Shown here: positions 7,820 through 45,658 of the stretch, piece after piece | Layout: every line of letters starts with the position of its first letter | How positions within the stretch are numbered: the stretch's first letter is position 1 | NCBI GenBank assembly: GCA_029258795.1 | Contig: JAPDKB010000002.1 | Coordinates: 50,822-114,821, forward strand | Source: an archaeon | GTDB lineage: Archaea > EX4484-52 > WAPT01 | Length of the DNA stretch: 64,000 nucleotides | Direction of reading: 5' to 3' | Notes under the pieces: model-generated | What the model saw: the letters and a program-made list of their open reading frames with translations, nothing else | Databases searched by the model: none | Told to the model about the DNA's origin: nothing | Program-made: the position numbers and the translations under genes

Positions 7820-7826
7820 AGGTTAT

Positions 7827-8726: not shown

Positions 8727-8820
8727 AATCTCTTGCAGTCAGCATACATTGTTATTTTATAGTTTTCTATTTTCGTTATGAGATGTGAGCGAAAGCTTTT
8801 TGTAGTTGATTTTTTGAACT

Positions 8821-9636
8821 TTGTTTATGATGCCCGGTAAAAAAGCTGTGATTCTAATAGGAGGAATGATAATGGTTGTGGCAGTTCTGAGCTTATGCGT
8901 GCAGAAACCGGAAGAAGGGGCACCCACGATTCAGCCAGGAAAGGAATTAAAGCTTTCTGATTTCCCTGAAGTGTTTAGCGAGAGTACTTTGATTGTTGTT
9001 GGAGACAACGCTTCTGAGGTTGAAGTTCAAGCAGCTAATGAAATTGCTGAATATTTGGAGGATGAGACCGGGAATAAACCTTTGATAAAGAAGTATTCTG
9101 AGGTTAGTGAGGAAGATAAGAGAAATTACAACTTGATTATTGTTGGCGCTTCTAATTCTAACCCTATGCTAAGGAAAGTCTCTGAGGAATGTACAAGAAA
9201 GAACTTCAAAAAATTAGAATTTAAGGGAGTTAATAGTTATTGGCAGGGCACAGGTAAAGGATACATACTTATTTTAGAAAACTTATGGTCGACAAGTAAA
9301 TGTATGTTGATTGTTGATGGATATGACAGCAGCGGGCTAGAATCTGCAGTTAGCACCCTTTTAAATACAGATATAATTATGTCCATAAACAATAGCGGTA
9401 TTTTAGTAAAATTAGAGAGTAGTACTCGAATACAAACTCTTCCAGTGTCTAAACTTTCAAAAATAGTGGCTAAAGATATTGCAGCAGAGTATTTGATAAA
9501 ACGATGTCAAACTATTCCTGAGGATAGTTTTAAGCTGAAAGTGTCGGATTTTGGAGATTACTGGCTAATTGAAGGAGGCTGTATCAAACTTCTAGTAGAT
9601 AAAAATAATGGTTTTGTAGAGGAGGTGAAATCTTGA
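8821..9636 (+). CDS. Secreted protein with S-layer-like N-terminal domain
   Basis: 271 aa; N-terminal signal/TM; conserved block TLIVVGDNASEVEVQAANEIAEYLEDETGNKPLIKKYSEVSEEDKRNYNLIIVGASNSN resembles archaeal S-layer N-terminal domains; paralog of the 9757..10685 gene. Confidence 0.55.
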   Translation: MFMMPGKKAVILIGGMIMVVAVLSLCVQKPEEGAPTIQPGKELKLSDFPEVFSESTLIVVGDNASEVEVQAANEIAEYLEDETGNKPLIKKYSEVSEEDKRNYNLIIVGASNSNPMLRKVSEECTRKNFKKLEFKGVNSYWQGTGKGYILILENLWSTSKCMLIVDGYDSSGLESAVSTLLNTDIIMSINNSGILVKLESSTRIQTLPVSKLSKIVAKDIAAEYLIKRCQTIPEDSFKLKVSDFGDYWLIEGGCIKLLVDKNNGFVEEVKS

Positions 9637-9756
9637 AGGCCAATTAATGACCTTCTTTGTATTATTCGTTCTCTTGTGTCCTACTGCATACGACATTCTA
9701 TCATCGAGATACTCTCTAAAATTCTATAGTAGTAACCAACTTTTGAAAGTTCACAT

Positions 9757-10685
9757 TCATGTATTATCACCTCCTACTAACATGGAACCGTCGCTACATC
9801 CTTCAGCCTGGCATGGAACTTTTACATTTTTTAAACCCCAGTCGTGGATCACTACTAAATTTAGACTCTTATTTAGATTAATCACAGCACAACTATGGTT
9901 GACAATATAGTTCAGAGTTGGATAACCTACGAAATAAGTTTCGTTTGATGATAAAAAGCTCTTGTTAACAATTATTCTCCCGTAATATTTATCTTCGCCA
10001 ACCTGGTGTAAAGGTGCTGTAACTATTTCTTTAATCGACTCGAACGTTCTTGTACTTTTATTATATCCGATCAATTGATATAAAGTCACTACTTTAGGTG
10101 GCTCTCCACTTAACTCATATTTTGGATCTGATGGTTCATCTGTTAGAACTAAAACATCTATTCTGATCTTGTCCTTAATGCTTGGAGCAATTACTACACT
10201 GGTTTCATTTTTAATCAGTGCAATCGGGTTTAGTTCAAGTCCCGCACTATACACCCCCACTCATCCCACCCTTCAACCAGTAACATCGCCTTATTTTTAT
10301 TCCAAGGATTCCTCAAAATTTCCAAAACACCCTTACCCTCTCCCGGAAATGTATCATTAACTTCCAAAACATCAACCATAGAATAAACTTCTATCAGCAT
10401 GAGATTGGAATTCGGCGTGCCAACAACAACTAAATTGTGGTTTCTTTTATCTTTCTCCGTGATTTCAGAATATTTTTTTATTAAGGGTTTATCCCCTGTT
10501 TCATTTTCCAAATAAGAGGTAATCTCGTTTGCGGCTTGCAATTCAATCTCAGAAGCATTATCACCAACGATAATTAAGGTATTATTCCCGAAATTTTGCC
10601 AGAGGAAAATGCCTATTATCAAAAGGATTAAAATTACGGTTCCTGCAATAATTAAGATCTTTCTGTTCATCATAATGTTTATCAT
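9757..10685 (-). pseudogene. Frameshifted paralog of the S-layer-domain protein
   Basis: ORFs 10230..10685 and 9757..10260 overlap by 31 nt in different frames; together they align with the 8821..9636 protein (LLVEGWDE then SAGLELNPIALI versus LIVDGYDSSGLESAVSTLL); shift lies in a poly-C run near 10254-10258. Confidence 0.55.
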
Positions 10686-10843
10686 TAAGTCTCATTATGC
10701 TTTTTTAATTATAAAATTTACGGCTCCAAGCGGCTTCGAGACAAAATTCATAGCTTGAGTTTTCGAGCTATGAAGATCAGAACTCCATACCACAAAAATT
10801 AGTTAGCTAAAACATTTCCGTATAAAAAACCATATTATACAGC

Positions 10844-11848
10844 ATGGGGGATAAAAAGAAAAGAAAAATAACAACCGAGGAAATAAGAGACATTACAAAC
10901 AAACTTGATAAAATAATCAAATATTACAAAGAGAAATACGGGGAAGATAAGAGCAGGAGAGACTGGCGTACATATGAGCAGAGAAGAACATTAAGGATGA
11001 AGCAGGCAGGGAGAGAGCTAAAAAATCTTATAGAAAGGGCTGCAGAGAATATAGAAATAGCTAAGGATAACAACAGGGGAAGAAAGCCGAAGCTTACAGC
11101 CAAGGACAAAGCCCTGATCATTCTTATAAAGGAAATATTCGATCTGAGCAACAGAGAACTTGCTGATATGATATTCATCTTTTCCTTAATGGCAGGAGTT
11201 GATGTAAGTTATAAAACCATTGAGAGAGCTTACGATGATGAGCTTGTTAAGTTAAGCCTGCACAACTTATTCGTTCTCATGGTTAAGGAAAAGATTATAG
11301 ATGATGTTGAGCTTGCTGGAGATGGAACTGGATACAGCTTGAGCATTAAGAAGCAATATGCTGATATTGAGGATGAGGGAAAGCAAAGAAAGGATTTCGT
11401 TTATTACTTTGCTCTGCTCGATTTAAGAACAAATCTTTATGTTGGATATGGCTACAGTAAAAGGTCGGAGAGGGATGCTTTTGATAAGGCCATGAAAATT
11501 ATGAGTAAGCTCGGCATTAATGTTAAGAGTGTGAGGCTTGATAGATATTATTCAAGCAACGCTGTGGTTAAAGAATATTTTGATGATAAGGATGTTAAGC
11601 TTTATTTAATTCCCAAGAAGAATGCTTCTGTTAAAGGCTGTAAGAAATGGAAGGAAGTTATGCATGGCTTTGCTGATGATGTTTACGGGTTTTTGCGTGA
11701 GTATTTTAAAAGGAATAAAGTTGAAAGCATGTTTTCCTTTGATAAGCGTAAGTTTTCTTCTCGATTAAGGGTCAGGAAGGATGAGAGAATTGCTACGAGC
11801 TTGCTTGCAAGGACTGTCTTGCATAATTTGTTTTGGTTTTATGGTTAG
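10844..11848 (+). CDS. Putative DDE-type transposase (family uncertain)
   Basis: 334 aa; lysine-rich N-terminus with HTH-like region, LAGDGTGYSL and later acidic motifs; sits among IS elements; family assignment not verified. Confidence 0.45.
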   Translation: MGDKKKRKITTEEIRDITNKLDKIIKYYKEKYGEDKSRRDWRTYEQRRTLRMKQAGRELKNLIERAAENIEIAKDNNRGRKPKLTAKDKALIILIKEIFDLSNRELADMIFIFSLMAGVDVSYKTIERAYDDELVKLSLHNLFVLMVKEKIIDDVELAGDGTGYSLSIKKQYADIEDEGKQRKDFVYYFALLDLRTNLYVGYGYSKRSERDAFDKAMKIMSKLGINVKSVRLDRYYSSNAVVKEYFDDKDVKLYLIPKKNASVKGCKKWKEVMHGFADDVYGFLREYFKRNKVESMFSFDKRKFSSRLRVRKDERIATSLLARTVLHNLFWFYG

Positions 11849-11923
11849 CTATTGGGTTAATTTTGTCCCAAAGCCACCACAACCACAAACTTTATATACG
11901 ACGATCGCAATATTTCTATCTGG

Positions 11924-12952
11924 GTGATTTGGATGGCGGAGAATTCTCCTAATTACCGATATGATCCTCTCATAGGCGAGCTTTACTTGAATAAAATCTC
12001 GTGTGAGTTAACAACCAGAAAGTTTCACAATGACTTGAGGAGGGAGTTCGAGGCCATTCTGGGCGCGGTAGCTAAATCCATGTTCTACACGGTGGGTAAG
12101 GTAACGGGCATGATTGTTGCAAAGTACTTTGATGATATTGATGTGCTTTCGTGGATGGGTTGGGGTGTGCCTCTGGTTAAAAAAGATGGAAGCGTGGAAG
12201 TTAAAAATTCTTACATGACCATGTATCGGAGCGAGATAGGCAAGAAGTCATGCGATATCGTTGCAGGATTTCTGGCAGGGTGGTTCAGTAGGAAGGAAAA
12301 GGATAATGTCGATTTTATAGAATCGAGGTGCGCCTCAACCACTAAGTTCAAGACCTGCAGGTTTGAAAGGGTTGAAAAGAATGTGGCTGTCGAAGTACCT
12401 AAAATCAGGATGAAGAAGCCCAGAGAACACCTGAAAAATGTGAATATAAACCTGAAACCATCCAGTGGTGAGATAATTTATAGGGGAGATTCGTCTCTCA
12501 TCATTCCACGTGGCTTTACCGCGATCTTTCAGAGGGAATTTGAAAGGGTGATCGGGGCTGTTGCTTCCAGAAAAATGTACGAAGTTGTGAAGAAAATAAG
12601 TTATGAGGCAGTTGTGAAGGAGCAGGGGTTCAGGTTTATTGGACTTGCTATTCTTCCCAAATTCATCCGTGCAAAGCTGCTTCTTCATGAAGAGCTTGTG
12701 CAGCTACCCGAAAGAGGTTTTGGGAATGTCAGGGTTTTAAGACTGGATTTGAAGGAAGGGATTCTGCTGGAAATTGATAATTCTTACAACGCATTCACCT
12801 ACGGTAAGGTTGGCAAGCCCGTGTGTCACACGCTTGCAGGAGTTCTTGCGGGAGGTGCCAAGGCGGTGATTGGCGGAGATTGGGAATGCGTGGAGAATAA
12901 ATGCGTTGCTGCAGGAGATGGTGTCTGCGAGTTCGAGTTGAAGCCGGCGTGA
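11924..12952 (+). CDS. Tandem V4R domain protein
   Basis: 342 aa; two repeats ending in V4R-like Cys motifs (CDIVAGFLAGWFS...CASTTKFKTCRFE and CHTLAGVLAGG...WECVENKCVAAGDGVCEFEL). Confidence 0.55.
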   Translation: MIWMAENSPNYRYDPLIGELYLNKISCELTTRKFHNDLRREFEAILGAVAKSMFYTVGKVTGMIVAKYFDDIDVLSWMGWGVPLVKKDGSVEVKNSYMTMYRSEIGKKSCDIVAGFLAGWFSRKEKDNVDFIESRCASTTKFKTCRFERVEKNVAVEVPKIRMKKPREHLKNVNINLKPSSGEIIYRGDSSLIIPRGFTAIFQREFERVIGAVASRKMYEVVKKISYEAVVKEQGFRFIGLAILPKFIRAKLLLHEELVQLPERGFGNVRVLRLDLKEGILLEIDNSYNAFTYGKVGKPVCHTLAGVLAGGAKAVIGGDWECVENKCVAAGDGVCEFELKPA

Positions 12953-13213: not shown

Positions 13214-13351
13214 GCGGGGGTTGCCGAGCCTGGCCAAAGGCGCGGGGCTTAGGACTCCGTGGCTCAGTGCCTGCGTGGGTTCGAAGGCCGCTGTTCGGTG
13301 GCTGGGTTTTCAAGTCCGATCTTAACGCGGCCGGAACTCCCACCCCCCGCA
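13214..13351 (+). tRNA. tRNA-Leu (anticodon TAG) with T-loop intron
   Basis: Same 30-nt 5' end as the upstream Leu gene; anticodon arm CGGGG-CTTAGGA-CTCCG; long variable arm; T-stem GTGGG...CCCAC interrupted by ~50 nt after TTCGAA; CCA encoded. Confidence 0.65.
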
Positions 13352-17261: not shown

Positions 17262-17362
17262 AGAACATCACTCCATAAACAACTGACAAACTTTCTTCAT
17301 CCTCCGCAACATTTATATATTTAACTGCGCCGACTTCGTGAAGCAGTATGCCCTATACTCAA

Positions 17363-17710
17363 TCACTTTTTCTTGGAAGAGGTGCTTTTCTTCTTGGTTG
17401 TGCTTTTTGCTTTGGTTGCTGTTTTCTTTGTTTTCTTCTCCCCAACCTCGGCTTCAACCTCCTCCAGCTCGGCTTCTTCTTCCTCCAGCAGCTTGTTCAT
17501 CTTGTAATCATCCCACGCTATCCACGCTACAAGCATGCCCATGAAGAACAGGAATGCTCCGAAGACGCCCTCAAACACTATCTTGAGGCTTTTCCAGAGT
17601 GCCGCTCCAAAGTACGGGATGTTACCGATATACCAATAGATGCCAGCAGCCATCAGCAGGATACCTATGACCATCTTAACTCCATTGTTCATCCGACCAC
17701 CTCTAAGCAT
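17363..17710 (-). CDS. Small membrane protein with acidic linker and lysine-rich tail (hypothetical)
   Basis: 115 aa; two hydrophobic helices, then EEEEAELEEVEAEV, then KKTKKTATKAKSTTKKKSTSSKKK; lies in the gap between L15e and the helicase. Confidence 0.4.
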   Translation of the reverse strand: MLRGGRMNNGVKMVIGILLMAAGIYWYIGNIPYFGAALWKSLKIVFEGVFGAFLFFMGMLVAWIAWDDYKMNKLLEEEEAELEEVEAEVGEKKTKKTATKAKSTTKKKSTSSKKK

Positions 17711-17839
17711 TTTTCCAGCTTTTCTGAAATTAGCGAGGGAAATTTTAAAAATCTACCAACCGCGCTCAAAAGGTCAGAGAAACGGGGAGAGTGTAAGCTG
17801 GGTTTTCCTTTCGGCATCCATGTTCTGCTAACCTTAAAA

Positions 17840-19750
17840 ATGTTCCCTCTGCAGTTTTTCAACATGCGCTTCTTCCCGTTCTCAACGATCAGGCCCGGAC
17901 AAAAGGATATGGTGGAAGCTGTAAGGGATGCGTGCGAGCAGGGGAAAGTTCTGCTGGTGCACGCTCCAACCGGAATAGGAAAGACCGCAGCTTCGCTTGC
18001 TCCTTCCTTGGAATATGCGGTGGAGCATGACAAGAGAGTTGTGTTTTTAACTCCGAGGCACACGCAGCACAAGATAGCTATTGATACAGTCAGAAGGATA
18101 AATGCTCGTGCCAACGTGAATCTGAAAGTTGTGGATGTGATCGGTAAGAAGTGGCTTTGCAGGATGGAGGGAATAGAAAAGCTGAGCTCCGCTGAGTTCA
18201 ACGAGTACTGCAGAGCTCTGAAGAGAAACGAGGCCTGCCCTTTTTACAACAACACGTGGAACAGGAGAAGTGGAGGGCTTACCAAGAAAGCTGAGGCCAT
18301 GATAAAAAGCGTGAGGAGAGATGTACTCTATGCGGAAGAGGTCTATGAACTTTGCGATGACCTGTGCCCCTATGAGATCCTCATGCAGGCAGCCAGAAAT
18401 GCCAACCTGCTGATAGGAGACTATTATCATATCTTCCATGAAAGAATAAGGAAGAGCTTCCTCGGCAGGAGCAACACGAAGCTGGAGGATGTTGTTCTTG
18501 TGGTGGATGAAGCGCACAACTTGCCAGCAAGGATAAGGGAACTCATGTCATCATCAACAAGCCTGCTTGCAATGAAAAGAGCTGAGAGAGAAGCGGAGGT
18601 TTTTGGCTACGACGATCTGGCCGAGATCATAGCCACAATCAGAACGCATGTGAAAAAGAAGCTGAAGGAAAAGCTGGAGAAATCCGGAACACCTCAGCTT
18701 TACGTTGGAAGAAGTTTGCTGCTCGATGCAGCTGAAAATAGTGGTGCTGATCTGGAAGAGCTGCTGGACTACATGGAGGAGGTGGCTGACGAGGTCAGGG
18801 AGGAGAAAAAGCGCTCATATGTTGGCGGGTTTGCATCATTTTTGAGGAGGTGGAAGGATGAAGCTCCAATCTACTGCAGAATAGCGGAGAAGAAGCTGAC
18901 CAGAAAGGGCAGAACCAACTATGTTCTCACGCTTCACTGCCTTGACCCCGCTCCCATTGCCTCGGAGGTGTTTAAGGAAGCGCATGCCACAATTCTCATG
19001 TCCGGCACCTTGCTCCCGCTTGAAATGTATGCAGATGTGCTCGGCGCAACGGAACTTGATGCAGTCAGATTGAAACTGAGGTCGCACTTTCCGCGCAGCA
19101 ACAAGCTTGAGATCGTGGTGGATGATGTTACAACCCAGTACAACAGAAGGGAGGAAAGGAACTTCGAGAAAATAGCGAAATACATCATTTCAGTAGTTAA
19201 TGCCACTCCTGACAACGTTTGCGTTTTCTTCCCGAGCTATGAGCTCCGCGACACCATCGCAAGAATGGTTGAGCTCTCGCTTGAAAAGAAGGTGCTTCTG
19301 GAGAAGCAGGGGATGAGCAAGAGCAGGAAAGCGCAGCTATTCCATGAGTTTGTAAGCGCAGCTGAGCAGGGAGGAGCATGCCTGCTTGGTGTGATGGGTG
19401 GCAGCTTCGATCAGGGTGTTGACTTTCCGAACAACGTGGTGAAGTGTGTTATCGTGGTGGGGCTGCCACTCGAAAAACCGGATTTGCTGACCGAAGCGAT
19501 GATAAACTACTATGATGCTAAATTTGGCAAGGGATGGGATTATGCCTACACCTATCCCGCAGTCATAAAAGCGCAGCAAGCAGCTGGAAGAGCCATAAGG
19601 AGTGAGAAGGATAAAGCGGTTGTGGTTTATATGGACAAGCGTTATCTCTGGGCAAACTACAGAAAGTGCTTCCCTGCTGAAACAAGATTCATAGTGTCAA
19701 GAAATCCAGCAGAGCTCATAAAAAGGTTCTTCTCGGATAGCAAGAAGTGA
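17840..19750 (+). CDS. XPD/Rad3-like (DinG family) Fe-S helicase
   Basis: Walker A VHAPTGIGKTAAS, DEAH box VVDEAHNL, four-Cys cluster (CRMEG...EYC...CPFY...CDDLCP); start placed at first ATG after the upstream minus-strand gene (17840 or 17864). Confidence 0.8.
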   Translation: MFPLQFFNMRFFPFSTIRPGQKDMVEAVRDACEQGKVLLVHAPTGIGKTAASLAPSLEYAVEHDKRVVFLTPRHTQHKIAIDTVRRINARANVNLKVVDVIGKKWLCRMEGIEKLSSAEFNEYCRALKRNEACPFYNNTWNRRSGGLTKKAEAMIKSVRRDVLYAEEVYELCDDLCPYEILMQAARNANLLIGDYYHIFHERIRKSFLGRSNTKLEDVVLVVDEAHNLPARIRELMSSSTSLLAMKRAEREAEVFGYDDLAEIIATIRTHVKKKLKEKLEKSGTPQLYVGRSLLLDAAENSGADLEELLDYMEEVADEVREEKKRSYVGGFASFLRRWKDEAPIYCRIAEKKLTRKGRTNYVLTLHCLDPAPIASEVFKEAHATILMSGTLLPLEMYADVLGATELDAVRLKLRSHFPRSNKLEIVVDDVTTQYNRREERNFEKIAKYIISVVNATPDNVCVFFPSYELRDTIARMVELSLEKKVLLEKQGMSKSRKAQLFHEFVSAAEQGGACLLGVMGGSFDQGVDFPNNVVKCVIVVGLPLEKPDLLTEAMINYYDAKFGKGWDYAYTYPAVIKAQQAAGRAIRSEKDKAVVVYMDKRYLWANYRKCFPAETRFIVSRNPAELIKRFFSDSKK

Positions 19751-20063: not shown

Positions 20064-20201
20064 GAAAATGAAGTAAAAATCCGCAAGTTTTAAATTTTCA
20101 ACAGATATGTTTGGAATAACAGAGTTTTCTTCGCCATCTCCTACCCAAATTCTCTCGCGTTTTCAAAAATTTTGATGGACGTTATGAATAACCTTTTTAA
20201 A

Positions 20202-20223
20202 ATTATGAACATATGTTCATAAT
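20202..20223. promoter_or_regulatory. Perfect 22-bp palindrome ATTATGAACATATGTTCATAAT abutting the operon start codon (candidate operator)
   Basis: Direct reading; extra half-site TTATGAA at ~20182-20188; A/T-rich TATA-like TTTTTAAAA just upstream; ATG of the DUF134 gene at 20224. Confidence 0.5.
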
Positions 20224-20646
20224 ATGCCCCGCAGGAAGAAGTGCAGGATGATAGGAGAGATGCCAGGAGTGCTGTTCTTCAAGCCACGTGGCATTCCAAC
20301 GAGCGATTTGGAAATTGTGGAACTTAGCATGGATGAACTTGAGGCCATCAAGCTGAAGGACATGGTGGGGCTGGATCAGGAGGAATGCGCAGAAAAGATG
20401 GGCATCTCAAGACCAACATTTCATCGCATACTCACAAAAGCGAGGAGGAAAATTGCCGATGCGATGATCAACGGCAAGGCAATAAAGCTGGATGAAAATG
20501 TGAAGCTCATCAACGCGAGAAGATTCAGATGCAGAAACTGTATGCACGAATTCACCATACCGCACGGCAGGAGAGTCGTGGATGTTACTTGTCCATCCTG
20601 CGGGAGCGGCGAGTTTGAATCACTTCACAAAATTGTATGGGGGTGA
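20224..20646 (+). CDS. DUF134-family predicted DNA-binding protein
   Basis: 140 aa; HTH-like core LDQEECAEKMGISRPTFHRILTKARRKIADAM plus C-terminal CRNC...CPSCG zinc ribbon; first gene of the NifX/MinD cluster. Confidence 0.7.
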   Translation: MPRRKKCRMIGEMPGVLFFKPRGIPTSDLEIVELSMDELEAIKLKDMVGLDQEECAEKMGISRPTFHRILTKARRKIADAMINGKAIKLDENVKLINARRFRCRNCMHEFTIPHGRRVVDVTCPSCGSGEFESLHKIVWG

Positions 20647-20652
20647 TGTTTT

Positions 20653-20877
20653 ATGCCTTGGGGGAGAGGTCTTGGAAGAATGCGCGGATGGAGATGTTTT
20701 GGTAGAGGATGGAATTTCGCTTTCTGGAGGGGGAGGGGTAGAGGAATGAGAGCTGGACCTCCGGCTAAATGTGTTTGTCCTAACTGCGGATATGAGGTGG
20801 TGCATGTTAGGGGCAGGCCATGTTCATCAGAAATCTGTCCCAAGTGCGGCAGCAGGATGGTTGGGAAGTGGGAGTAA
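20653..20877 (+). CDS. Small RG-rich zinc-ribbon protein
   Basis: 74 aa; RG/GRG repeats (GRGLGRMRGWRCFGRGW...RGRGRG) followed by CPNCG...CPKCG. Confidence 0.5.
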   Translation: MPWGRGLGRMRGWRCFGRGWNFAFWRGRGRGMRAGPPAKCVCPNCGYEVVHVRGRPCSSEICPKCGSRMVGKWE

Positions 20878-20896
20878 ATTTTGGGGGTGAGGTTAC

Positions 20897-21316
20897 ATGA
20901 AAATCTGTGTTCCAGCAACAGGAGAGGGTCTTGAGGTAAGGATATGTCCTGTATTTGGCAGAGCACCTTACTTTGTTTTTGTGGAGGTGGATGATGGAGG
21001 AAACATAACCTCATGGAACGCGGAAAAGAACCCAGCCGAGTATGCGAGGGGTGGTGCGGGCATAATGGCATCCCAGAAGGTGGTGGATGCTGGCTGTGAT
21101 GCACTCATAACCATTTCAATCGGGCCTAAAGCCTATGATGTGCTGAGAGCATCGGGAGTGAAGGTTTATGCCGGGGTGGAGGCATCGGTAAAGGATAATG
21201 TTGAAAAGCTGGTTAGAAACGAGCTGAGCGAGATGGTTGAAGCTGTGCCTGGAAGGTTCGGAAGAGGATGGAGAGGAGTAAGGGGCTTTGGAGCAGGGAG
21301 AGGGTGGAGATGGTGA
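20897..21316 (+). CDS. NifX/NafY-like (dinitrogenase FeMo-cofactor-binding fold) protein with RG-rich tail
   Basis: 139 aa; MKICVPATGEGLEVRICPVFGRAPYFVFVEVDD...GCDALITISIGPKAYDVL resembles the Nitro_FeMo-Co domain; C-terminal GRGWRGVRGFGAGRGWRW. Confidence 0.65.
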   Translation: MKICVPATGEGLEVRICPVFGRAPYFVFVEVDDGGNITSWNAEKNPAEYARGGAGIMASQKVVDAGCDALITISIGPKAYDVLRASGVKVYAGVEASVKDNVEKLVRNELSEMVEAVPGRFGRGWRGVRGFGAGRGWRW

Positions 21317-22569
21317 AGAACAGACACGCTGCTTTACGTGAGGGAATTAGGGCTATGCGTAACGTTTCCGTAGCTCTATTGCTGCTTGCTGCCCTGAAAT
21401 TTGCAGTTGGAATCATTGCCAACGCTCCCGTGCTTGTAGCGGACTCGCTCCATACCCTTGTGGATCTTTCCGCGGTGCTTGCCGTGCTTTTAGGCATAAA
21501 GCTTGCTACAAGACCTCCCTCGGAAAGGTTTCCGTACGGTTATTACAAGGCCGAATCTCTGGCAGCGCTTTTCGTTTCGGTAATCATAATGTACGGCGCG
21601 TACGAACTGGTTGGTGGGGCATTGCACAGGTGGAAGGAAGGCGCAGCCATCAACATGGTTCCGCTGGCTTCGGTTGTTGCAGCTATATCTCTGGTGCTCT
21701 CTTATATCCTTTCCAAGTATGAGGAAAGGGCAGCATTGCTGACGGGATCGGATGCCATCTCTGCCACCTCAAAAGAAGCATTGCTTGACGTCTTTTCTTC
21801 GGGCATGGTTCTGGTTTCCATCTTGCTCTCGTCAGCAGGACTTGCGTTCGTTGAAAGCGCAGTTACCATCCTCATCAGCCTGCTGGTTTTCAAGCTCGCT
21901 TTTGAAAATGTGTATTCAAGCATCATGGCTTTGATGGATGTCAGCCCTAGCAGGAAGATGGAGCAAAATGTAAGAAAAGTTCTGGAGAGCATGCCCGCCA
22001 TAGTTGGTTATAGGGACATGCGTCTCAGAAAGGCGGGCCCGTTCATATTTGGGGAGGTAACCATAATTACGGATCCAAAGCTTGATGTCGAAAAAGCCCA
22101 CAGCATTGCTGACGAGGTTGAGAGGAAAGTTATGGAAGAGGTGCCGCAGATAGAGCATCTTGTGGTGCATCTCGAGCCGTATGAGAAAGAGAAGTTGAGA
22201 GTTATCGTGCCCGTTACAGGGAATGAGGGAATGAATTCAAAACTTGCAGAACACTTCGGAAGGGCTGAAGGGTTCCTCATCTTTGAGGTTGAAAAAAAGA
22301 AGGGGAAAATGAAATTGCTTGATTTTGTCAAGAACTTGCAAAAACAAAAGAAGGTGAGAGCGGGATTAGCTGCCGCAAAACAGCTGCTGAAAAATGTCGA
22401 GTTTGATGCAGTCATAACTAAAGAGATGGGAGAGATAGCGTTTCATGTCCTGAAGGATGAGGGTAAGGATGTTTACAGGGCAAAAGGCTCTACCGCTGAA
22501 GAGGCTGTGAAGCTTTTCATGAAGGATGAGCTTGAAAAACTGGATACGCCCACAAAGGAAAAGGAGTGA
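21310..22569 (+). CDS. Cation diffusion facilitator (CDF) transporter fused to a C-terminal NifX-like domain
   Basis: CDF signature ADSLHTLVDLSAVL...RPPSERFPYGYYKAESLAALF with multiple TM helices, then LRVIVPVTGNEGMNSKLAEHFGRAEGFLIFEVE (NifX-like); ATG at 21310 overlaps the upstream stop (ATGGTGA). Confidence 0.7.
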   Translation: MVKNRHAALREGIRAMRNVSVALLLLAALKFAVGIIANAPVLVADSLHTLVDLSAVLAVLLGIKLATRPPSERFPYGYYKAESLAALFVSVIIMYGAYELVGGALHRWKEGAAINMVPLASVVAAISLVLSYILSKYEERAALLTGSDAISATSKEALLDVFSSGMVLVSILLSSAGLAFVESAVTILISLLVFKLAFENVYSSIMALMDVSPSRKMEQNVRKVLESMPAIVGYRDMRLRKAGPFIFGEVTIITDPKLDVEKAHSIADEVERKVMEEVPQIEHLVVHLEPYEKEKLRVIVPVTGNEGMNSKLAEHFGRAEGFLIFEVEKKKGKMKLLDFVKNLQKQKKVRAGLAAAKQLLKNVEFDAVITKEMGEIAFHVLKDEGKDVYRAKGSTAEEAVKLFMKDELEKLDTPTKEKE

Positions 22570-22573
22570 GGTG

Positions 22574-22918
22574 ATGCGAATGAAAATTGCCATACCGCTT
22601 GAGGAAAATAAGGGGGTTGATTCAAGAGTTGCGGAGCACTTCGGAAGGGTGAGATTCTTTCTGATATATGATACGGAAAGCGGAAGTTTTGAGGTGGTTG
22701 ATTTTGAGAAGGAGGAGGAAGGAGTCTGCAGCCCTGCGAGCTTTCTCATAGAGAGAGGTGTGCATGCCGTTTATGTGCTTGGAATGGGTTACAAAGCGAG
22801 ATGCATGCTTGAGGAAGCAGGCGTGCAGGTTCTCACAGGAGAGTACACGATAGCGAGAGACATCCTCAAAAATCTCGACCGCTTGAATAAATTTGAGGGA
22901 GGGTGTACTCATCACTGA
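22574..22918 (+). CDS. NifX/NafY-like domain protein
   Basis: MKIAIPLEENKGVDSRVAEHFGRVRFFLIYD...GVHAVYVLGMGYKARCMLEEAGVQV; RBS-like AAGGAGTGAGGTG upstream. Confidence 0.6.
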   Translation: MRMKIAIPLEENKGVDSRVAEHFGRVRFFLIYDTESGSFEVVDFEKEEEGVCSPASFLIERGVHAVYVLGMGYKARCMLEEAGVQVLTGEYTIARDILKNLDRLNKFEGGCTHH

Positions 22919-22942
22919 AGTGGAAAGTGCGGTGTGTGTTCG

Positions 22943-23815
22943 ATGCCCTTTACGATATGTGTTGTTTCAGGTAAGGGTGGTGTTGGCAAGACAACGGTAG
23001 CCGCAGCTCTCTCCAAAATATTGGCAAGAAAGTACAGGGTACTTGCGGTTGATGCGGATGTTGAATGCCCAAACCTCCACATCCTTTTGAAGGCAGGAGA
23101 GCTTGAGAAGGTGAGGGACGTTTGCACCACGCTTCCCGAGATAGATGAGAAGCGATGCATCCAATGCGGCAGGTGTGTGGAAGTGTGCAGAAAAAACGCG
23201 CTTTTCAGGAGAAAAGAAGGAGTTCCTCTCCTAATAGAAGAGCAGTGCAACGGCTGCAAGGCATGCTTCATTGTGTGTCCCACCAAAGCTATAGGGGAGA
23301 AAAAAGTTGTGATGGGAACGATAAGGAAGCGCGTGATCGAAAATGACAGGCTGGTTTTGCTATCCGGAGAGTTAGAGGTGGGACAGGAGGAGCCGACACC
23401 TGTTGTCAGAGAGCTGATGAGGGAGGTTGAAGCTGTAAAGCGTGATTTCGATTTTGTGGTGGTGGATGCAGCTCCCGGCGTGAAGTGCAACGTGGCTGCA
23501 GCTCTCGAGGGATGCGATCACACCTTGCTTGTTGTGGAGCCGACACCTTTCGGTGTTGAAGATGCGAAGCGAGTTGCGGAGCTAATCAAAATTATAGGTG
23601 TGGATGCTCATGTTGTCATCAACAGGTCTGTAAAGCGGGAGGAAGATGAGAAGAGAGTAATGGGTAGCGTACCATTTTCTGTAATCTGTACTTTACCCTA
23701 CTCCACGGAAGCCGTTAGACTCTATGTGGCAGGAGATGTGGAAAAGATGGAAGGTATAGGGGATATCGCAAAAGCTGTGGAGAAGCTTGCGGAGCTTTCG
23801 GGTGAGGAGGGATGA
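22943..23815 (+). CDS. MinD/ParA-superfamily P-loop ATPase with inserted 4Fe-4S ferredoxin domain
   Basis: Deviant Walker A VVSGKGGVGKTT; two Cys clusters CIQCGRCVEVC and CNGCKACFIVCP. Confidence 0.75.
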   Translation: MPFTICVVSGKGGVGKTTVAAALSKILARKYRVLAVDADVECPNLHILLKAGELEKVRDVCTTLPEIDEKRCIQCGRCVEVCRKNALFRRKEGVPLLIEEQCNGCKACFIVCPTKAIGEKKVVMGTIRKRVIENDRLVLLSGELEVGQEEPTPVVRELMREVEAVKRDFDFVVVDAAPGVKCNVAAALEGCDHTLLVVEPTPFGVEDAKRVAELIKIIGVDAHVVINRSVKREEDEKRVMGSVPFSVICTLPYSTEAVRLYVAGDVEKMEGIGDIAKAVEKLAELSGEEG

Positions 23816-24693
23816 AGAAAGTTGTGGTTGCATCCGGAAAGGGAGGGACGGGCAAAACAACCATCGCGTCAAGCCTCGCGGTGACGGCAGCAAAGCATTG
23901 TAAAGTGGTGGTGGCTGACTGTGATGTTGACGCTCCCAACTTGAAGCTGATTCTGGGGAAAGATAATATGGATGGCTTTGATTTTGTGGAGGTCAGCACG
24001 TCGGAGAAGGCATGTGTGGGTGAGCAGCGCTGCATCAACTGCGGGAGGTGTGTTGAAGCGTGTCAGTTTAATGCCATGCAGTGGGACAACAAGAAAAAGC
24101 TACCGAAGGTCAAGAAGATTTACTGCGAGGGTTGCGGAGCATGCCAGCTTGTGTGTCCAGCTGGAGCCATAGAAATAAAGGCTGTTAGAAACGGTAGAGT
24201 GGGGTGGGGAAAGCTAAGCCCAAATCTCTGGCTGGTTTTCGGTGAGCTTTACGTGGGAGAGTCAGCAAGTGGTAAAATAGTGGTGGATGTGAAGAAGAAA
24301 GCTCTCGAGCTTGCAAGAAATATAAATGCTGACCTGTTCATTGTTGATGCTTCCGCAGGTATAGGATGTCCCGTGATAGCATCCATGGCGTTCATGGATC
24401 ACGCTCTCATCGTTGCGGAGCCCACACCCTCAAGCGTCAGCGACATGGAAAGGATGCTCATGCTGGCGGAACACTTCAGGATGGAAAAGAGCGTGGTGAT
24501 AAATAAAGCCGGGCTGAGCGAGAGATGGCGAAAGGAAATAGAGACCATGGCATCGAGATATGATGCGGAAATCATAGCCACAATTCCGCACGACATGAGA
24601 GTTATGAATTCTGTATCAAGGCTCGTTCCTCTTGTTGAATATGAAGCCTCTTATCTTCCTTTATTCGAAAAAATTCTGACAAGATTACTCTGA
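23812..24693 (+). CDS. MinD/ParA-superfamily P-loop ATPase with ferredoxin domain (paralog)
   Basis: VASGKGGTGKTT; CINCGRCVEAC and CEGCGACQLVCP; start overlaps upstream stop (ATGA). Confidence 0.75.
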   Translation: MKKVVVASGKGGTGKTTIASSLAVTAAKHCKVVVADCDVDAPNLKLILGKDNMDGFDFVEVSTSEKACVGEQRCINCGRCVEACQFNAMQWDNKKKLPKVKKIYCEGCGACQLVCPAGAIEIKAVRNGRVGWGKLSPNLWLVFGELYVGESASGKIVVDVKKKALELARNINADLFIVDASAGIGCPVIASMAFMDHALIVAEPTPSSVSDMERMLMLAEHFRMEKSVVINKAGLSERWRKEIETMASRYDAEIIATIPHDMRVMNSVSRLVPLVEYEASYLPLFEKILTRLL

Positions 24694-25173
24694 AAAGAAC
24701 AGCTTCCTGTAATTCTCTGCTAGCTTAACAACCACAACCTTCCCTTCTTTCTCCCTGCTCACCACCCCTCTCTTCTCCAGCCTCTGCACAGCCCTGAAAA
24801 CGCGCAGCTTATCAAGCCTTGCCTGCTTTGCTATCCTTGCCTGTGTACTCTCTCCACCGCTTTCAAGCAAGATCTTCATAACTCTGGCCTCATCATCTCT
24901 GAGCAAGCTAAGCAATAGCTTCTTTTGCTGCGTTTCATTTCTGAAGCGGGGAGAAAGAAGGTAGTAGGTCGTGGTGCCTATGAAAAGGCCGAGCACCCCT
25001 ATGAAAGGAATAAAGAGGTAAACGGGAATGGCACAGGCGCAAATATCTCCTTCGTACACATGTTCCTGCACGTAAAGGGAAGAGAGAGCAACTATAAAAA
25101 CAAAGATGGACAGAATAAGCATTGCAAGTATGATTTTTTTATGGAGAGTTTTGAATGATAACGAGCTGTCCAT
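24685..25173 (-). CDS. Membrane-anchored winged-helix transcriptional regulator (hypothetical)
   Basis: 162 aa; two N-terminal TM helices, then an HTH-like segment ARVMKILLESGGESTQARIAKQARLDKLRVFRAVQRLEKRGVV. Confidence 0.5.
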   Translation of the reverse strand: MDSSLSFKTLHKKIILAMLILSIFVFIVALSSLYVQEHVYEGDICACAIPVYLFIPFIGVLGLFIGTTTYYLLSPRFRNETQQKKLLLSLLRDDEARVMKILLESGGESTQARIAKQARLDKLRVFRAVQRLEKRGVVSREKEGKVVVVKLAENYRKLFFSE

Positions 25174-25231
25174 GTATCTGGCATGAGCGGAGAAAAACTT
25201 TTATATATATCTTTGGGTGCAATTAAAGGTA

Positions 25232-26164
25232 ATGCCCGCAAAAAAGCAGAGCTTTGGAGAATTTTTGAAGGATAATGTGGCAACGTCTTTCAAGCATGCG
25301 ATCCACAGCAGGAGTTTTGTGATAGTTTATCTTTTTCATCTCGTGTTTTTCTCGGCGATGATTTACACAGCATTAAAAATGGTTCCTTCTTTTCTCCAAC
25401 TGAGCATCGCTCAAGAAATGGGGATCGGGCTTGCTGCAGGCACGAACACAGCCGGAATTCTAATGACGCAGTTCGTATACTTGGGAGTGATATTTATCAT
25501 ATACTGGCTCCTCAGCTATGTCATAACGGTTGCAGTGCTGGTGGGATTTGATGAGATGAGACGCACCAAAAAAGAGGGAAGGTTTCTTGATCACTTCGTT
25601 TACGGGTTTTATCGGCTGCCCACATTGATAGGCATAGCTATCGTTTCCGCCTTGCTCATGCTTCCCGGTGCAATACTATCCGAGCTGGTCAAGAAGGTGT
25701 CATTGACTGCCGGAAGCTTTGTTTATGACGTTTATTCCATTGTTCTCACACTGACCATTTTGCTTGCTGTGCCATATGCCGTGCTGAAGAAGGAAGGCAT
25801 CCTGAGTTCCATCAAGAAATCCTACCGTGCCTTTAAGGACAATCCCGTCGAGATTCTGATCTCCTATCTTGTGGGGGTCGCGGTCTCGCTCTCTGTTGTG
25901 CTCGCATTTCTCGTGCCGGTTGGTGTTGTGCTGGTCATGAAGCTCTCTCCAGCCATATCACCACTCTTACAGCAGCTGGGTGGCGCAGCACAACAAAACC
26001 CGCAGCTTATGGTGGGTTCAATCTCCGGAATAGTAACCGCACTTTATCAGCACCGTTACTGGCTCATTGGAGGTTATGTTGTTGGCATTGTGGGTTTCAC
26101 ACTTTCTTACCTTTTCTGGGCTTCTTATCTAGTAGGGTTGTTCAGGAGGTACGGGAGAAAGTAA
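25232..26164 (+). CDS. Polytopic membrane protein (hypothetical)
   Basis: ~310 aa with at least 6 hydrophobic helices; ATG at 25232 within ORF 25217..26164. Confidence 0.45.
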   Translation: MPAKKQSFGEFLKDNVATSFKHAIHSRSFVIVYLFHLVFFSAMIYTALKMVPSFLQLSIAQEMGIGLAAGTNTAGILMTQFVYLGVIFIIYWLLSYVITVAVLVGFDEMRRTKKEGRFLDHFVYGFYRLPTLIGIAIVSALLMLPGAILSELVKKVSLTAGSFVYDVYSIVLTLTILLAVPYAVLKKEGILSSIKKSYRAFKDNPVEILISYLVGVAVSLSVVLAFLVPVGVVLVMKLSPAISPLLQQLGGAAQQNPQLMVGSISGIVTALYQHRYWLIGGYVVGIVGFTLSYLFWASYLVGLFRRYGRK

Positions 26165-27972: not shown

Positions 27973-30828
27973 TTAAGAGACGGGTAAGGAAGGGTTGTTG
28001 GGCCAGTAATACATGGCATCTATTTGTGCATATGCCCATTCCTCCGCCATACCCATTCCAAATTCTGCCACCGCAAGCCACGCACCAGCGGTAAAGTACG
28101 CTGCCACTACGTTAACCGCAGTCATGAAAGCGCTAACACCCAATTTCAAAGCCTGTTCTTGAAGGGTGCCGCTTCCATAGTAACAGAAGTTGTCAGTGTT
28201 TGTTGGAGCTCGAACAACCGAAACCGTGATTACGGGGTGAGTGGTTTTATCAATTAGCTGTTGAGGCACAATACCGTCTAAAGCACTTGTGAAGATATTG
28301 GGTGGATTACAGCTTCTTTTGACCTTAACGTTAGTCGGGAGGATATCAACATCTTCTCCAAGCCAATGCTTAAAGGAGCTGTAATCATAGAGTTCGTTAT
28401 TGGCACGACCGGTGGGCTCAAAAATACCCCATATCGGATTATTCTCTGGTGTCTTTCCCACACAGTAAACTTCCTCTCTTATGGGTAAGGGCATACCATT
28501 CTCTACTATTATTCCTCCAGCACCAGTAACTTTAGCCACATAAACACAGGATTTAGGCCAAGAGGCACATATGTCTCTTGGAGGTGGTGTGAACGGATTC
28601 ACGAAATCGGTAAACCAACTCCAGTCCGCACCAGAATAAGGTAACAAATTACACATTTGGATTAATGCCGCGCACTCCTCATACATTTTTCGAGTTTCAT
28701 TATTATCATCTTTTGTTACTACGTGGTCGATTACATGGTCTTGATAATATTTTTGGAGGTCATCAAGCACCTCGTCATCAGAGTGTGAGTCATCGAATAG
28801 AACTAATTCAGTATGCGTTTTAATATCTTCAGGAATTTTTTCGGTGTCACAATTAAGCTTTGTTTTGACATATTCCGCACACACATGTCTATCAAATCTA
28901 GTGACAGCACATTCTTTTGTGGCGGTTTTTGAAACCAGCAAGTCCGCTTTGCAGGGAGCGGCAAAATACATTCTTAAACTTGAACCTCCCTTGTCGATCT
29001 CCACAAAATAAGGTCTGACTTCATCCACCAGCTTTATGGTTTGAGTTGCCCTCTCCGGGCTGGCGGAAGCCGTGAGAATGTCCAGCAGGAACACTTTTTG
29101 AGGGGAGTAAACATGAAGTGTGTTATAGTCAGAAGGCAACTCCTTGACTTTGAGTGCCATGTCTATTTGCTGAGTGGTATAGAGGAGTGCAGCAAGAGCA
29201 CAGGTCGAAAATCTCTTGAAAGGTCTACCACTGCCTGTCAGAGCTGTGCACTCATAAGAGTTTTTCGCAACTTGTGCCCAGTAAGAATCTTCCGGTATGA
29301 TCTGATCCGCAAGTCCGGTATCATCAAGCGCTTCCAGCATCCAGAAGGAGAAATGTGCACCTTCTCGGTAAGCCAGAAACTTCATAACCTCCGGGAAATT
29401 CTTCCCCACCCCTTTCCAAAATTCCGGACTTAATTTTCGCTGACCCATGAAGCCATATTGATCGGCTAACTTTCTTATATTATTTTTGAGCGCTTGGTAT
29501 GTAGTTTCATCATTTAGAGCATCCTTGAGTATACCCATCGCCTCTTCTTTACTTCCAGCATTTTTTATCTTCTCCAAGGTTTCTTCCGGTAAGTCCTTCG
29601 CGATTGTCGATGCTATTTTGTTATCTGTTTTTAGAACTACCACTGCCAACTTGCTATCTAACTCACCACTTTTTACCCCCTTAACTATTTCATAGATTCT
29701 TTTCCATTGATCTCCCATTTCTTTTATGCTTAGAGTGTAACCTTTAGTGTTAAGATCTCCAAAAATTTCTCGAAAAACAACACTTCCGTCCTCTCCATTT
29801 CTAATAGCATTTTGCAGCTTTTCGGCTGCTTCTTTGGCAACGTTTTCACTCACGCCTTTATTTTTTAACCACTTTTCAAAACTCTCCGCCAGGATTTCGT
29901 CTCCATCCTTTCGTAGCGTCTTGGCAAATCCTTCCAAGCCCTCAGTACAGCTTTTTAGTGCAATTCTGGATAGAACCTTCCCTTCTCCTCCAAATATTCT
30001 GCCCAAAAAGTTCAGTTTTTTAAGCGCCTTAAAAGCCTTCCCAGCTATACCGCCGCCAACGTTCAAAAATCCCGCAAGCACCATACTTCCGAAGAGGTCT
30101 GCAGCTTCTTCAGACTCGAGCCATGCCTGCTCTTCTCCCTCTGGAAAAGAATTGTAATAAATTATGACATCAGGGTCGTAATATTTTGGTTTGATTCTCT
30201 CACCGAACTCAACTTTCCCGCTTTCATGCTGTTTCAAGTCAAAATTGAACACTTTACACTTGAATTCTGGTGTGTTCAGTTGAGAATAGTATTCAGTTAT
30301 CTTCTCATCCTTGCTGGCGGGATTGCTCCATAAAGCATCTTTTGATAGCAATGTGCTGTTCGCACACACAACAACACTATTACCGAACCTGTAAGCAACG
30401 GGTTTTTCCTCAGCATAGGCAAGCTCGATTCCAAATAATCCTGTTACAATGTTCTCAACCTTTCTCTTAACTCTTTTCATATCCCTTATCATCATCGCCG
30501 TTGGGTTGTTTTTTCCAGCTTCTATTGCATTTATTGCATCATCAAATGTGTATAGAGGCTCTATCGTTACTGATCCTGCATTGTTCGTTATTTCTGAATT
30601 TTCACAGGTATAGTCGTTAATGTATCCTGCAGCCTCACTGTTTATTGCGCAAGCTAACGCTAGAGCTGAAGCCTGGCTTATGGGGTCGATTTTGAACTCG
30701 AGAAGCTTGCTTAAGAATTCATTCAGGCCTATGATGAATGCCACAAGAAGAAACAATATGAAAATGAAGAGAAGTATTCTAAAAATAGGTTCTTCTTTCA
30801 ACGTGGCTTTGGTACGGGAGAGTTTCAT
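27973..30828 (-). CDS. Large (951 aa) signal-anchored extracellular protein, hypothetical
   Basis: N-terminal TM anchor FRILLFIFILFLLVAFIIGL; long Cys-containing C-terminal region; AT-rich; abuts the tRNA-Gly 3' end. Confidence 0.55.
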   Translation of the reverse strand: MKLSRTKATLKEEPIFRILLFIFILFLLVAFIIGLNEFLSKLLEFKIDPISQASALALACAINSEAAGYINDYTCENSEITNNAGSVTIEPLYTFDDAINAIEAGKNNPTAMMIRDMKRVKRKVENIVTGLFGIELAYAEEKPVAYRFGNSVVVCANSTLLSKDALWSNPASKDEKITEYYSQLNTPEFKCKVFNFDLKQHESGKVEFGERIKPKYYDPDVIIYYNSFPEGEEQAWLESEEAADLFGSMVLAGFLNVGGGIAGKAFKALKKLNFLGRIFGGEGKVLSRIALKSCTEGLEGFAKTLRKDGDEILAESFEKWLKNKGVSENVAKEAAEKLQNAIRNGEDGSVVFREIFGDLNTKGYTLSIKEMGDQWKRIYEIVKGVKSGELDSKLAVVVLKTDNKIASTIAKDLPEETLEKIKNAGSKEEAMGILKDALNDETTYQALKNNIRKLADQYGFMGQRKLSPEFWKGVGKNFPEVMKFLAYREGAHFSFWMLEALDDTGLADQIIPEDSYWAQVAKNSYECTALTGSGRPFKRFSTCALAALLYTTQQIDMALKVKELPSDYNTLHVYSPQKVFLLDILTASASPERATQTIKLVDEVRPYFVEIDKGGSSLRMYFAAPCKADLLVSKTATKECAVTRFDRHVCAEYVKTKLNCDTEKIPEDIKTHTELVLFDDSHSDDEVLDDLQKYYQDHVIDHVVTKDDNNETRKMYEECAALIQMCNLLPYSGADWSWFTDFVNPFTPPPRDICASWPKSCVYVAKVTGAGGIIVENGMPLPIREEVYCVGKTPENNPIWGIFEPTGRANNELYDYSSFKHWLGEDVDILPTNVKVKRSCNPPNIFTSALDGIVPQQLIDKTTHPVITVSVVRAPTNTDNFCYYGSGTLQEQALKLGVSAFMTAVNVVAAYFTAGAWLAVAEFGMGMAEEWAYAQIDAMYYWPNNPSLPVS

Positions 30829-45646: not shown

Positions 45647-45658
45647 ACCTTTTATTTT

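Follow-up and report, generated by a model that had tools for sequence, protein, structure and literature searches.

A 64-kb window of archaeal DNA (64,000 nt of contig JAPDKB010000002.1) carries, at positions 20224-24693, seven closely spaced + strand genes, here called g1-g7, which form a genuine and coherent system, a variant of the known, functionally unsolved ORP ('orange protein') system. The core of the operon, comprising a DUF134 protein, NifX-like proteins and two MinD-like ATPases with inserted ferredoxin domains (MinD-ferredoxin ATPases), is the anaerobe-specific ORP cluster. The operon is best read as a DUF134-regulated, ATP- and electron-driven system that would store or mobilise iron-sulfide species, and we give roughly even chances to the view that, as an ORP-type system of an anaerobic archaeon, it handles inorganic iron-sulfide species. 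An initial annotation, made from the sequence of the window, had singled out this block as a candidate for an uncharacterised system, which is right as regards its mechanism and wrong as regards the existence of the system.

All seven open reading frames (ORFs) are present, separated by gaps of 6, 19, 10 and 24 nt and joined by two overlapping stop/start codons of the kind the initial annotation had described, ATGA at g6/g7 and, if g4 starts at 21310, ATGGTGA at g3/g4. Ribosome-binding sites of the GGTGA/GGAGG type precede the internal genes, and a simple scan of the g1-g7 block found no convincing internal terminator (6 sites against 4.3 expected by chance). Public gene calls place the start of g4 at 21268, of g5 at 22580 (112 aa) and of g6 at 22943 (290 aa). 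The same seven genes occur in the same order in two relatives known from MAG contigs, L002 (g4 62% identical) and L085 (g4 46% identical; loci outside the window are numbered with an L), and an identical order at these levels of identity is more than chance would give. Together with the ORFs and junctions, this confirms the proposed seven-gene, + strand operon. Every domain call passes its Pfam threshold except that of g2, a small zinc-ribbon protein rich in arginine and glycine, which has no model. The domain searches support the DUF134 protein, the three NifX-like domains (one of them fused to a metal transporter) and the two ATPases with their ferredoxin inserts, as first assigned.

The ORP cluster has been described in Desulfovibrio vulgaris (Fievet 2011, as cited in PMC6345978 and PMC8359166), where strain Hildenborough carries the genes orp5-orp4-orp3 and orp7-orp8-orp9 (DVU2103-2105, DVU2107-2109). 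The products include two paralogous ATPases with two [4Fe-4S] motifs each (Orp3 and Orp4), the orange protein itself (Orp8), a small Fe-S protein (Orp5) and MrpORP (Orp9), in which an Mrp/NBP35 protein is joined to a NifX-like domain known as 'Di-Nase'. Orp8 co-purifies with Orp3 and Orp4, and all three accept Fe-S clusters from MrpORP in vitro (PMC6345978). The claim that no function had been demonstrated for such a neighbourhood does not hold in view of these results, nor in view of IssA, a characterised representative of the NifX-like proteins with Trp/Gly/Arg-rich tails (PMC5524996). The role of the ORP complex is termed 'still unclear', and a link to cell division has been proposed from a morphological phenotype (PMC8359166, PMC4672049). 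Homologues in Archaeoglobus fulgidus, AF2378-AF2380, have been linked to the ORP system and are constitutively highly expressed (PMC3949148).

The window is tied to this system because g3 matches the ORP structure of Desulfovibrio gigas (2wfb), because AF2378-AF2380 are linked to ORP, and because two loci found via the window ATPase, L011 (Desulfobacteraceae) and L048 (Syntrophus), carry MrpORP, their proteins reaching 510 and 531 bits on the NCBIfam equivalog model for MrpORP (cut-off 450). The likeness extends to the paired paralogous MinD-type ATPases with two [4Fe-4S] motifs each (Orp3/Orp4, corresponding to g6/g7), to two kinds of small NifX-like 'Di-Nase' proteins (Orp8 being type I, like g3, and Orp5 type II, like g5) and to the restriction to anaerobes. 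Orp7 is presumably the DUF134 protein. The systems differ in that the archaeal genes form one operon, whereas those of D. vulgaris form two divergent operons, and in that the archaeal host carries in addition a fusion of a cation diffusion facilitator (CDF) transporter to a NifX-like domain and a glycine/arginine (GR)-rich zinc-ribbon gene. Control also differs: D. vulgaris relies on sigma-54 and OrpR, whereas here no enhancer-binding protein is adjacent to the operon, and a palindrome in an archaeal TATA context is found instead.

The association of these genes was measured in a census, in which one genome per species was scanned with a MinD-ferredoxin alignment and the ORFs in the resulting loci were classed by profiles seeded from the window proteins. 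True MinD-ferredoxin genes were present in 42 loci, whose phyla include Dehalococcoidia, Bacteroidota, Clostridia, Desulfobacterota, Spirochaetes, Thermoplasmatota and Bathyarchaeia; 36 ordinary MinD loci returned by the same scan served as controls. A NifX-like gene was found within 4 kb on the same strand in 38 of the 42 loci, with two or more in 32, and two MinD-ferredoxin genes were likewise present in 38. DUF134 occurred in 15/42, a g2-like GR-rich zinc ribbon in 16/42 and an additional Mrp-like ATPase in 21/42. Beside plain MinD genes the corresponding figures were 0/36 for NifX, 0/36 for the g2-like ribbon and 1/36 for DUF134, so that homologues are clustered and not scattered. Elsewhere these parts are also joined by fusions (NifX + GR + zinc ribbon, DUF134 + zinc ribbon, and Mrp + type II NifX). 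Other neighbours in the 42 loci were DUF5320 (17), FmdB-type zinc ribbons (12), NifU_N/IscU (11), metallo-beta-lactamase-fold proteins (9), radical SAM proteins (9), ARMT1-like proteins (8), CGGC (6), TrmO_N (5), Fur (4) and FeoB (3), and ZIP transporters and IscS are also among the recurrent neighbours. The recurrence of NifU_N/IscU, Fur, FeoB, ZIP, IscS and DUF5320 favours the suggestion of metal or metallocluster trafficking made in the initial annotation, and this neighbour spectrum favours iron-sulfur over the rival readings discussed below.

The first gene, g1 (20224..20646, +), encodes a DUF134 (UPF0251) protein (PF02001, E 3.5e-25; 88.8 bits, cut-off 27), with a sigma-70 region-4-like helix-turn-helix (Sigma70_r4_2, E 1.5e-6) and a C-terminal CxxC...CxxC zinc ribbon, for which the Zn_ribbon_8 match is below cut-off. 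A structure search returned no solved homologue. In L048 (2759-3613) a DUF134 protein is fused to a 4Fe-4S ferredoxin-like domain. The g1 protein is the predicted regulator of the operon. Upstream of its gene lies a TATA-box-like A/T-rich element, TTTTTAAAA (20194..20202, +), read from the sequence and centred ~26 nt before the g1 ATG; an A/T-rich element stands at the same position in L002, L085 and L087. From the usual position of archaeal TATA boxes this element would be the g1 promoter, and its distance from the ATG implies a leaderless g1 transcript. Between the element and the start codon is a perfect 20-bp palindrome, TTATGAACATATGTTCATAA (20203..20222), a predicted operator which we call the DUF134 box and which is unique in the window at 0 mismatches.

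The box is kept in L002, L085 and L087 while the surrounding non-coding DNA is not conserved. In bacterial loci from Dehalococcoidia, Zixibacteria, Bacteroidota and Sphaerochaeta the box (tTATGAnCATATGnTCATAa) lies 8-75 nt before DUF134 genes, and in L022 and L023, which have no nearby DUF134 gene, it precedes the first NifX-like gene. A matrix scan gave 25 sites of at least 15 bits in ~650 kb of cluster loci and 0 in ~506 kb of plain MinD loci. As an independent test, metagenome contigs were searched by DNA pattern alone, which returned 80 loci; a DUF134 gene starts directly downstream of the box in 58 of these, at a median distance of 15.5 nt. A further 4 have DUF134 elsewhere in the locus, 5 have other cluster genes only, and 13 are without any cluster gene, several of them being cut by contig ends. 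No DNA-binding protein other than DUF134 accompanies the box consistently, which makes DUF134 its likely binder. In the archaeal loci, the position of the box between TATA element and start suggests, by analogy with established archaeal promoter architecture, repression by promoter occlusion. A dimer of g1 would then bind the palindrome ahead of its own leaderless gene and so control the whole operon, and may sense metal or Fe-S status through its Cys-rich ribbon.

Several further observations concern the box. At L130 (~2855) and L150 (~7618) it precedes a DUF5320 gene and at L146 (~60) a metallo-beta-lactamase-fold gene, not DUF134, which hints at further regulon members. An extra half-site, TTATGAA (20182-20188), lies 14 nt upstream of the palindrome and overlaps the stretch immediately ahead of the TATA-like element; L002 has no conserved counterpart of this half-site. 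Identity with the LexA (Cheo) box of Gram-positive bacteria, which resembles the GAACATATGTTC inside the DUF134 box, was considered and rejected because variants such as TTATGAGCATATGCTCATAA have no GAAC/GTTC, because archaea to our knowledge have no LexA, and because the box tracks DUF134 genes. The Fur box differs from it in its shorter spacing. The OrpR site of D. vulgaris, GGGCGYRTTTTGCGCCC, is unrelated to it (PMC8359166). The open literature that we searched contains essentially nothing on DUF134/UPF0251, and a description of the box was not found there.

The NifX-like proteins of these clusters are of two types. Type I has VDPRFGR...GGAG...GPNA motifs, often followed by a Gly/Arg-rich tail, and is represented by g3 (20897..21316, +; PF02579, Nitro_FeMo-Co, E 1.3e-20), an ORP/MTH1175/IssA-like protein with the tail GRFGRGWRGVRGFGAGRGWRW. 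Type II has xHFG(H/R) close to its N-terminus and a C-terminal Cys/His motif, and is represented by g5 (22580..22918, +; PF02579, E 2.7e-18), with an AEHFGR motif and a C-terminal GGCTHH. The type II signature corresponds to the Fe-S ligands of the Di-Nase domain as proposed by the authors of the MrpORP work. In L011 (1170-2162) a single protein joins type I NifX, a GR-rich segment, a coiled coil and type II NifX.

A characterised protein of similar build to g3 is IssA of Pyrococcus furiosus (PF2025), which stores iron and sulfur as anionic thioferrate, and whose unstructured tail, rich in Trp, Gly and Arg, has been proposed to bind the thioferrate polymer electrostatically (PMC5524996). Like IssA, g3 has an IPR003731/PF02579 globular domain followed by a cationic Trp/Gly/Arg-rich tail, in this case residues 113-139, with 6 Arg, 8 Gly, 3 Trp and 2 Phe and a pI of 12. 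The best match of g3 in the PDB is MTH1175 (1eo1, E 1.7e-20), the structural proxy for IssA, which has been placed in the IssA clade (PMC5524996). The two proteins differ in that the g3 tail is without the proline-rich linker of IssA, and in that IssA is not described as a member of a MinD-ferredoxin operon.

A second cationic segment is supplied by g2 (20653..20877, +), a protein of 74 aa. Its N-terminal 38 residues, rich in Trp, Gly and Arg (9 Arg, 10 Gly, 4 Trp; pI 12), are followed by a rubredoxin-style CxCPxCG...CPxCG double-knuckle ribbon, read from the sequence. The composition and ribbon noted in the initial annotation are both visible; no Pfam or NCBIfam model lies above cut-off for g2. 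Its family, which numbers at least 3665 clusters (E<=1e-5) under the names 'hypothetical' or 'DUF5320 family', follows the pattern of a GR-rich N-terminus, often starting MPRGDGTGP as in DUF5320, then CxCPxCG..PH..G.PC....CPxCG..M.R, with 5 Cys and 1 His invariant in the family alignment. With DUF5320 (PF17253), itself found in the same clusters, the family shares the N-terminal MPxGDxTGP...GRG Gly/Arg-rich segment, whereas the C-terminal coiled coil of DUF5320 is replaced in g2 and its family by the four-cysteine ribbon. There is no PF17253 match for g2, and one relative scores 18.3 bits (E 0.0055), below the cut-off of 27. Since CPxCG knuckles are of the rubredoxin kind, it is possible that the g2 ribbon binds iron rather than zinc. 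Elsewhere the g2-like module forms a C-terminal extension of a type I NifX-like protein or of a DUF134 protein. This GR-rich zinc-ribbon family, whether free-standing or fused to NifX or DUF134, is not described in the literature that we searched. By their composition, the g3 tail and the g2 N-terminus have the character of the IssA tail. In the iron-sulfide reading the NifX-like proteins would be the carriers, holding anionic metal-sulfide clusters non-covalently; g3 and g2 would supply Arg/Trp/Gly-rich cationic segments such as have been proposed, for IssA, to wrap thioferrate, and g5 may offer Cys/His ligands like the Fe-S-binding Di-Nase domain of MrpORP.

The same carriers could in principle serve thiomolybdate or thiotungstate and copper, with the NifX-like proteins binding Mo(W)-Cu-S clusters and so detoxifying or trafficking the thiometallates formed in sulfidic habitats. 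The homology of g3 to the D. gigas ORP structure (2wfb, E 1.8e-11) would fit this, as would the non-covalent [S2MoS2CuS2MoS2] cluster carried by Orp8 homologues (PMC6345978), and cationic tails would suit any anionic metal-sulfide. We nonetheless consider it quite improbable: g3 is nearer to MTH1175, of the IssA clade, than to ORP, CDF proteins carry divalent cations and not oxyanions, and the recurrent neighbours include no molybdate or tungstate transporter, molybdopterin or copper gene, while the IscU/NifU_N, Fur, FeoB, ZIP and IscS genes are present.

The last two genes, g6 (22943..23815, +) and g7 (23812..24693, +), encode an A-type and a B-type MinD-like ATPase respectively, each with a CbiA/MinD P-loop and an inserted 2x[4Fe-4S] ferredoxin domain with two CxxCxxCxxxC motifs (Pfam); the AlphaFold model of g6 has a pLDDT of 94.7. 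In 31 tandem pairs from outside the lineage of the window, the upstream copy is nearer to g6 in 28 and the downstream copy nearer to g7 in 29, and on this comparison g6 and g7 are judged to be an ancient A/B pair. In L032 (7998-9866) the two types are fused in one chain of 622 aa, which together with the conserved tandem order gives indirect support for complex formation by the products. Conserved in the A and B types alike are the deviant Walker A, including its signature lysine, the aspartates of switch I, the Walker B aspartate and all eight cluster cysteines. Compared with the other SIMIBI proteins (MinD, NifH, Mrp/Nbp35/ApbC, CooC and HypB), the family has ~90 residues, a beta-arm and the 2x[4Fe-4S] ferredoxin, inserted after switch I; it is without the CxxC bridging motif of Mrp. 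Structure searches found no solved structure of an insert-bearing ATPase, and a search of the open literature for inserted-ferredoxin MinD ATPases (COG1149) yielded nothing relevant. One extra cysteine is conserved at >=90% (C182 in the A type, C186 in the B type), exactly 7 residues after the Walker B aspartate. The cluster ligand Cys132 of NifH has the same 7-residue spacing. NifH and BchL bridge a [4Fe-4S] cluster with two cysteines per subunit, whereas the g6/g7-type subunits have the single conserved extra cysteine. In the iron-sulfide reading g6 and g7 would be the engine, an A/B heterodimeric MinD-class ATPase with two [4Fe-4S] clusters per subunit, whose ATP-driven dimer cycling, coupled to electron transfer, may lead to reductive assembly, mobilisation or handing over of the stored material; the published co-purification of the D. 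vulgaris homologues is in keeping with such a complex.

A MinD-like pair could instead act in positioning, placing the division site or segregating a cytoplasmic cargo such as IssA-type Fe-S particles, with the ferredoxin inserts as redox sensors. This was the proposal of the original authors, who drew it from the morphological defect of an orpR mutant of D. vulgaris and from the location of MrpORP at the cell poles (PMC8359166, PMC6345978, PMC4672049). The best fold and sequence matches of g6 and g7 are MinD proteins, with which they share the deviant Walker A and the MinD fold, and the C-terminus of g7 is possibly an amphipathic helix. They score only 69-77 bits against the MinD models TIGR01969 and TIGR01968, however, where the cut-offs are ~200-213, and the C-termini of the family are not conserved as a membrane-targeting motif. 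The partners in the loci examined are metal-cluster carriers, scaffolds and metal transporters, and never of the MinC/MinE/FtsZ type. The eight ferredoxin cysteines are invariant in a 16-sequence alignment and >=90% conserved in both paralogue sets, so that cluster binding would be core and not accessory. We hold positioning to be about as improbable as thiometallate handling; positioning and storage could be reconciled if the cargo is an Fe-S particle. Marginally less probable again is a dedicated maturation set for one complex metalloenzyme (nitrogenase-like, carbon monoxide dehydrogenase (CODH), hydrogenase or similar), analogous to NifH/NifX/NafY, CooC or HypB, since no nif, CODH or hydrogenase genes lie near the operon in the window, further paralogues of the PF02579 or MinD-ferredoxin genes are absent from the 64 kb, the 42 loci, drawn from very different anaerobes, have no one enzyme family as a recurrent neighbour of the cluster, and the distribution is far wider than that of nitrogenase; nitrogenase cofactor maturation in particular is rejected, as the window has no other PF02579 or NifH-like genes.

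Metal balance in the iron-sulfide system would fall to g4 (21268..22569, +; alternative start 21310), a CDF transporter fused to a NifX-like domain (Cation_efflux E 8.6e-38, ZT_dimer E 1.3e-18, PF02579 E 2.9e-15). Its AlphaFold model (pLDDT 86) has six transmembrane (TM) helices, a dimerisation domain and an alpha/beta NifX-like domain. The protein scores 203 bits against TIGR01297 (cut-off 82); its best NCBIfam matches are FieF and the magnetosome proteins MamB and MamM, Fe/Zn-type CDFs, all with equivalog scores far below their cut-offs, and its closest solved structure is YiiP/FieF (E 2.4e-27). The six TM helices and the cytoplasmic alpha-beta dimerisation domain are shared with YiiP/FieF and MamB/MamM, whereas the aligned transport-site quartet, conserved in the fusion family, is H,D / E,D in place of D,D (TM2) / H,D (TM5). 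We know of no characterised class of CDF metal site that matches H,D / E,D, and the substrate of g4 is uncertain because of this difference. Going by its family, g4 would export excess divalent metal, most likely Fe(II), and its cytoplasmic NifX-like domain may either sense the loading of the carrier pool or feed the pump.

The CDF-NifX architecture is found in ~88 protein clusters, annotated as CDF transporters only, of which the named ones come from Aenigmarchaeota, Thermoproteota, ANME-2 and Methanosarcinaceae. Nine lineages were examined, and eight had NifX-like plus DUF134 or DUF5320 genes alongside, and seven MinD-ferredoxin genes. The fusion gene stands directly after Rrf2-IscS-IscU-MnmA in L089, beside Fur, a ferritin-like protein, desulfoferrodoxin and a ZIP transporter in L090, and beside ZIP in L091. 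None of the 42 loci of the ATPase scan carries the fusion, which was found via g4 itself; it is thus specific to an archaeal subset, and is an archaeal addition to the system. A 'CDF' assigned to L011 in the first census was rejected, as the protein is the fusion of NifX types I and II described above, with no transporter. A CDF exporter-NifX fusion that recurs inside such archaeal clusters is not described in the literature that we searched.

Several points weigh against the iron-sulfide reading. The archaeal proteins of the operon are known here from genes and models, and DUF134 is, by association, the consistent candidate for binding the box. The sole in vivo phenotype of the D. vulgaris system is a morphological or cell-division defect and not an iron phenotype (PMC8359166), and native D. 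gigas ORP carried a Mo-Cu-S cluster, not Fe-S. No ORF for MrpORP or an Mrp/ApbC-like carrier is present in the 64-kb window, and the IssA tail is of 70 residues, against the 27 of g3. Coupling of the ATPases to electron transfer is drawn by analogy with NifH-type proteins; the equation of the switch II cysteine with NifH Cys132 is a lead, unconfirmed by profile alignment, since hhalign of the ATPase family against an approximate Azotobacter vinelandii NifH sequence aligned the first 48 columns only. Fe(II) as the substrate of g4 is a guess. A larger proposal builds on the iron-sulfide reading and is correspondingly tentative, with the balance of probability against it, and more credible in our view than any of the rivals. 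It holds that DUF134 is the sequence-specific regulator of an ancient regulon common to Bacteria and Archaea, marked by the box TTATGAnCATATGnTCATAA, which would build an anaerobic counterpart of ferritin: NifX-like and GR-rich proteins would store iron as an anionic iron-sulfide polymer, the heterodimeric MinD-ferredoxin ATPase would load, reductively unload or position the store, and CDF or ZIP transporters would balance the iron pool.

The window is archaeal, as it contains an archaeal signal recognition particle RNA, and the operon follows closely on genes for ribosomal protein L15e and an XPD helicase. The mechanical ORF of the latter (XPD/Rad3, 17348-19750, +) is 800 aa long against 628 aa in the public call, and its first ~170 codons overlap an opposite-strand lysine-rich membrane protein (17363-17710, -), of 115 aa here and 109 aa in the public call on the same contig. 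Downstream, a membrane-anchored TrmB/MarR-like winged-helix protein (24685-25173, -) is convergent with g7 and overlaps its end by 9 nt, and is followed by a 315-aa multi-pass membrane protein (25217-26164, +). Both were excluded as parts of the system, being syntenic in the close relatives L001-L004 and absent from L085 and L087. About 23 kb downstream of the operon (48085-49705, -) the genome encodes a conventional pair for Fe-S assembly, namely a cysteine desulfurase like IscS (Aminotran_5, E 8.9e-91) and a scaffold of the IscU/NifU_N kind (E 2.5e-44).

Further from the operon, two transposase genes (7006-8726, -), one of the IS240-type DDE family and one IS1595/ISXO2-like with a zinc ribbon, sit within a low-GC stretch at 6001-12000 (33-36% GC, against ~47% around the operon) that is probably an insertion or island. 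Two large ORFs are without a Pfam match at E<=1e-5, one of 951 aa with an N-terminal transmembrane segment (27973-30828, -) and one of 446 aa (5614-6954, -). The transfer RNA predictions differ by program: Rfam gives a 121-nt tRNA at 51985-52105 (+), long enough for an intron, and a weak 56-nt match at 55918-55973 (-), neither in the ARAGORN output, while ARAGORN gives a tRNA-Leu at 13223-13300 (+) not listed by the Rfam gathering search. Small proteins whose N-termini, judged by eye, resemble class III (type IV pilin/archaellin-like) signal peptides are encoded at 45185-46767, 51426-51854 and 61003-61467, a hint of pilus- or archaellum-related loci in other parts of the window.

Anaerobes of very many kinds, bacterial as well as archaeal, carry the ORP-type cluster. 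A metal exporter fused to a NifX-like domain within the operon points to metal homeostasis rather than cell division, and the W/G/R-rich cationic (IssA-like) segments appear as a mobile module of the system. The box, shared across domains, predicts where DUF134 proteins of Bacteria and Archaea bind and, by extension, which genes make up their regulon. The chief value of the operon lies in the transporter fusion, the modular cationic segments and, above all, this DUF134 box, by which the regulation of the system becomes directly testable.

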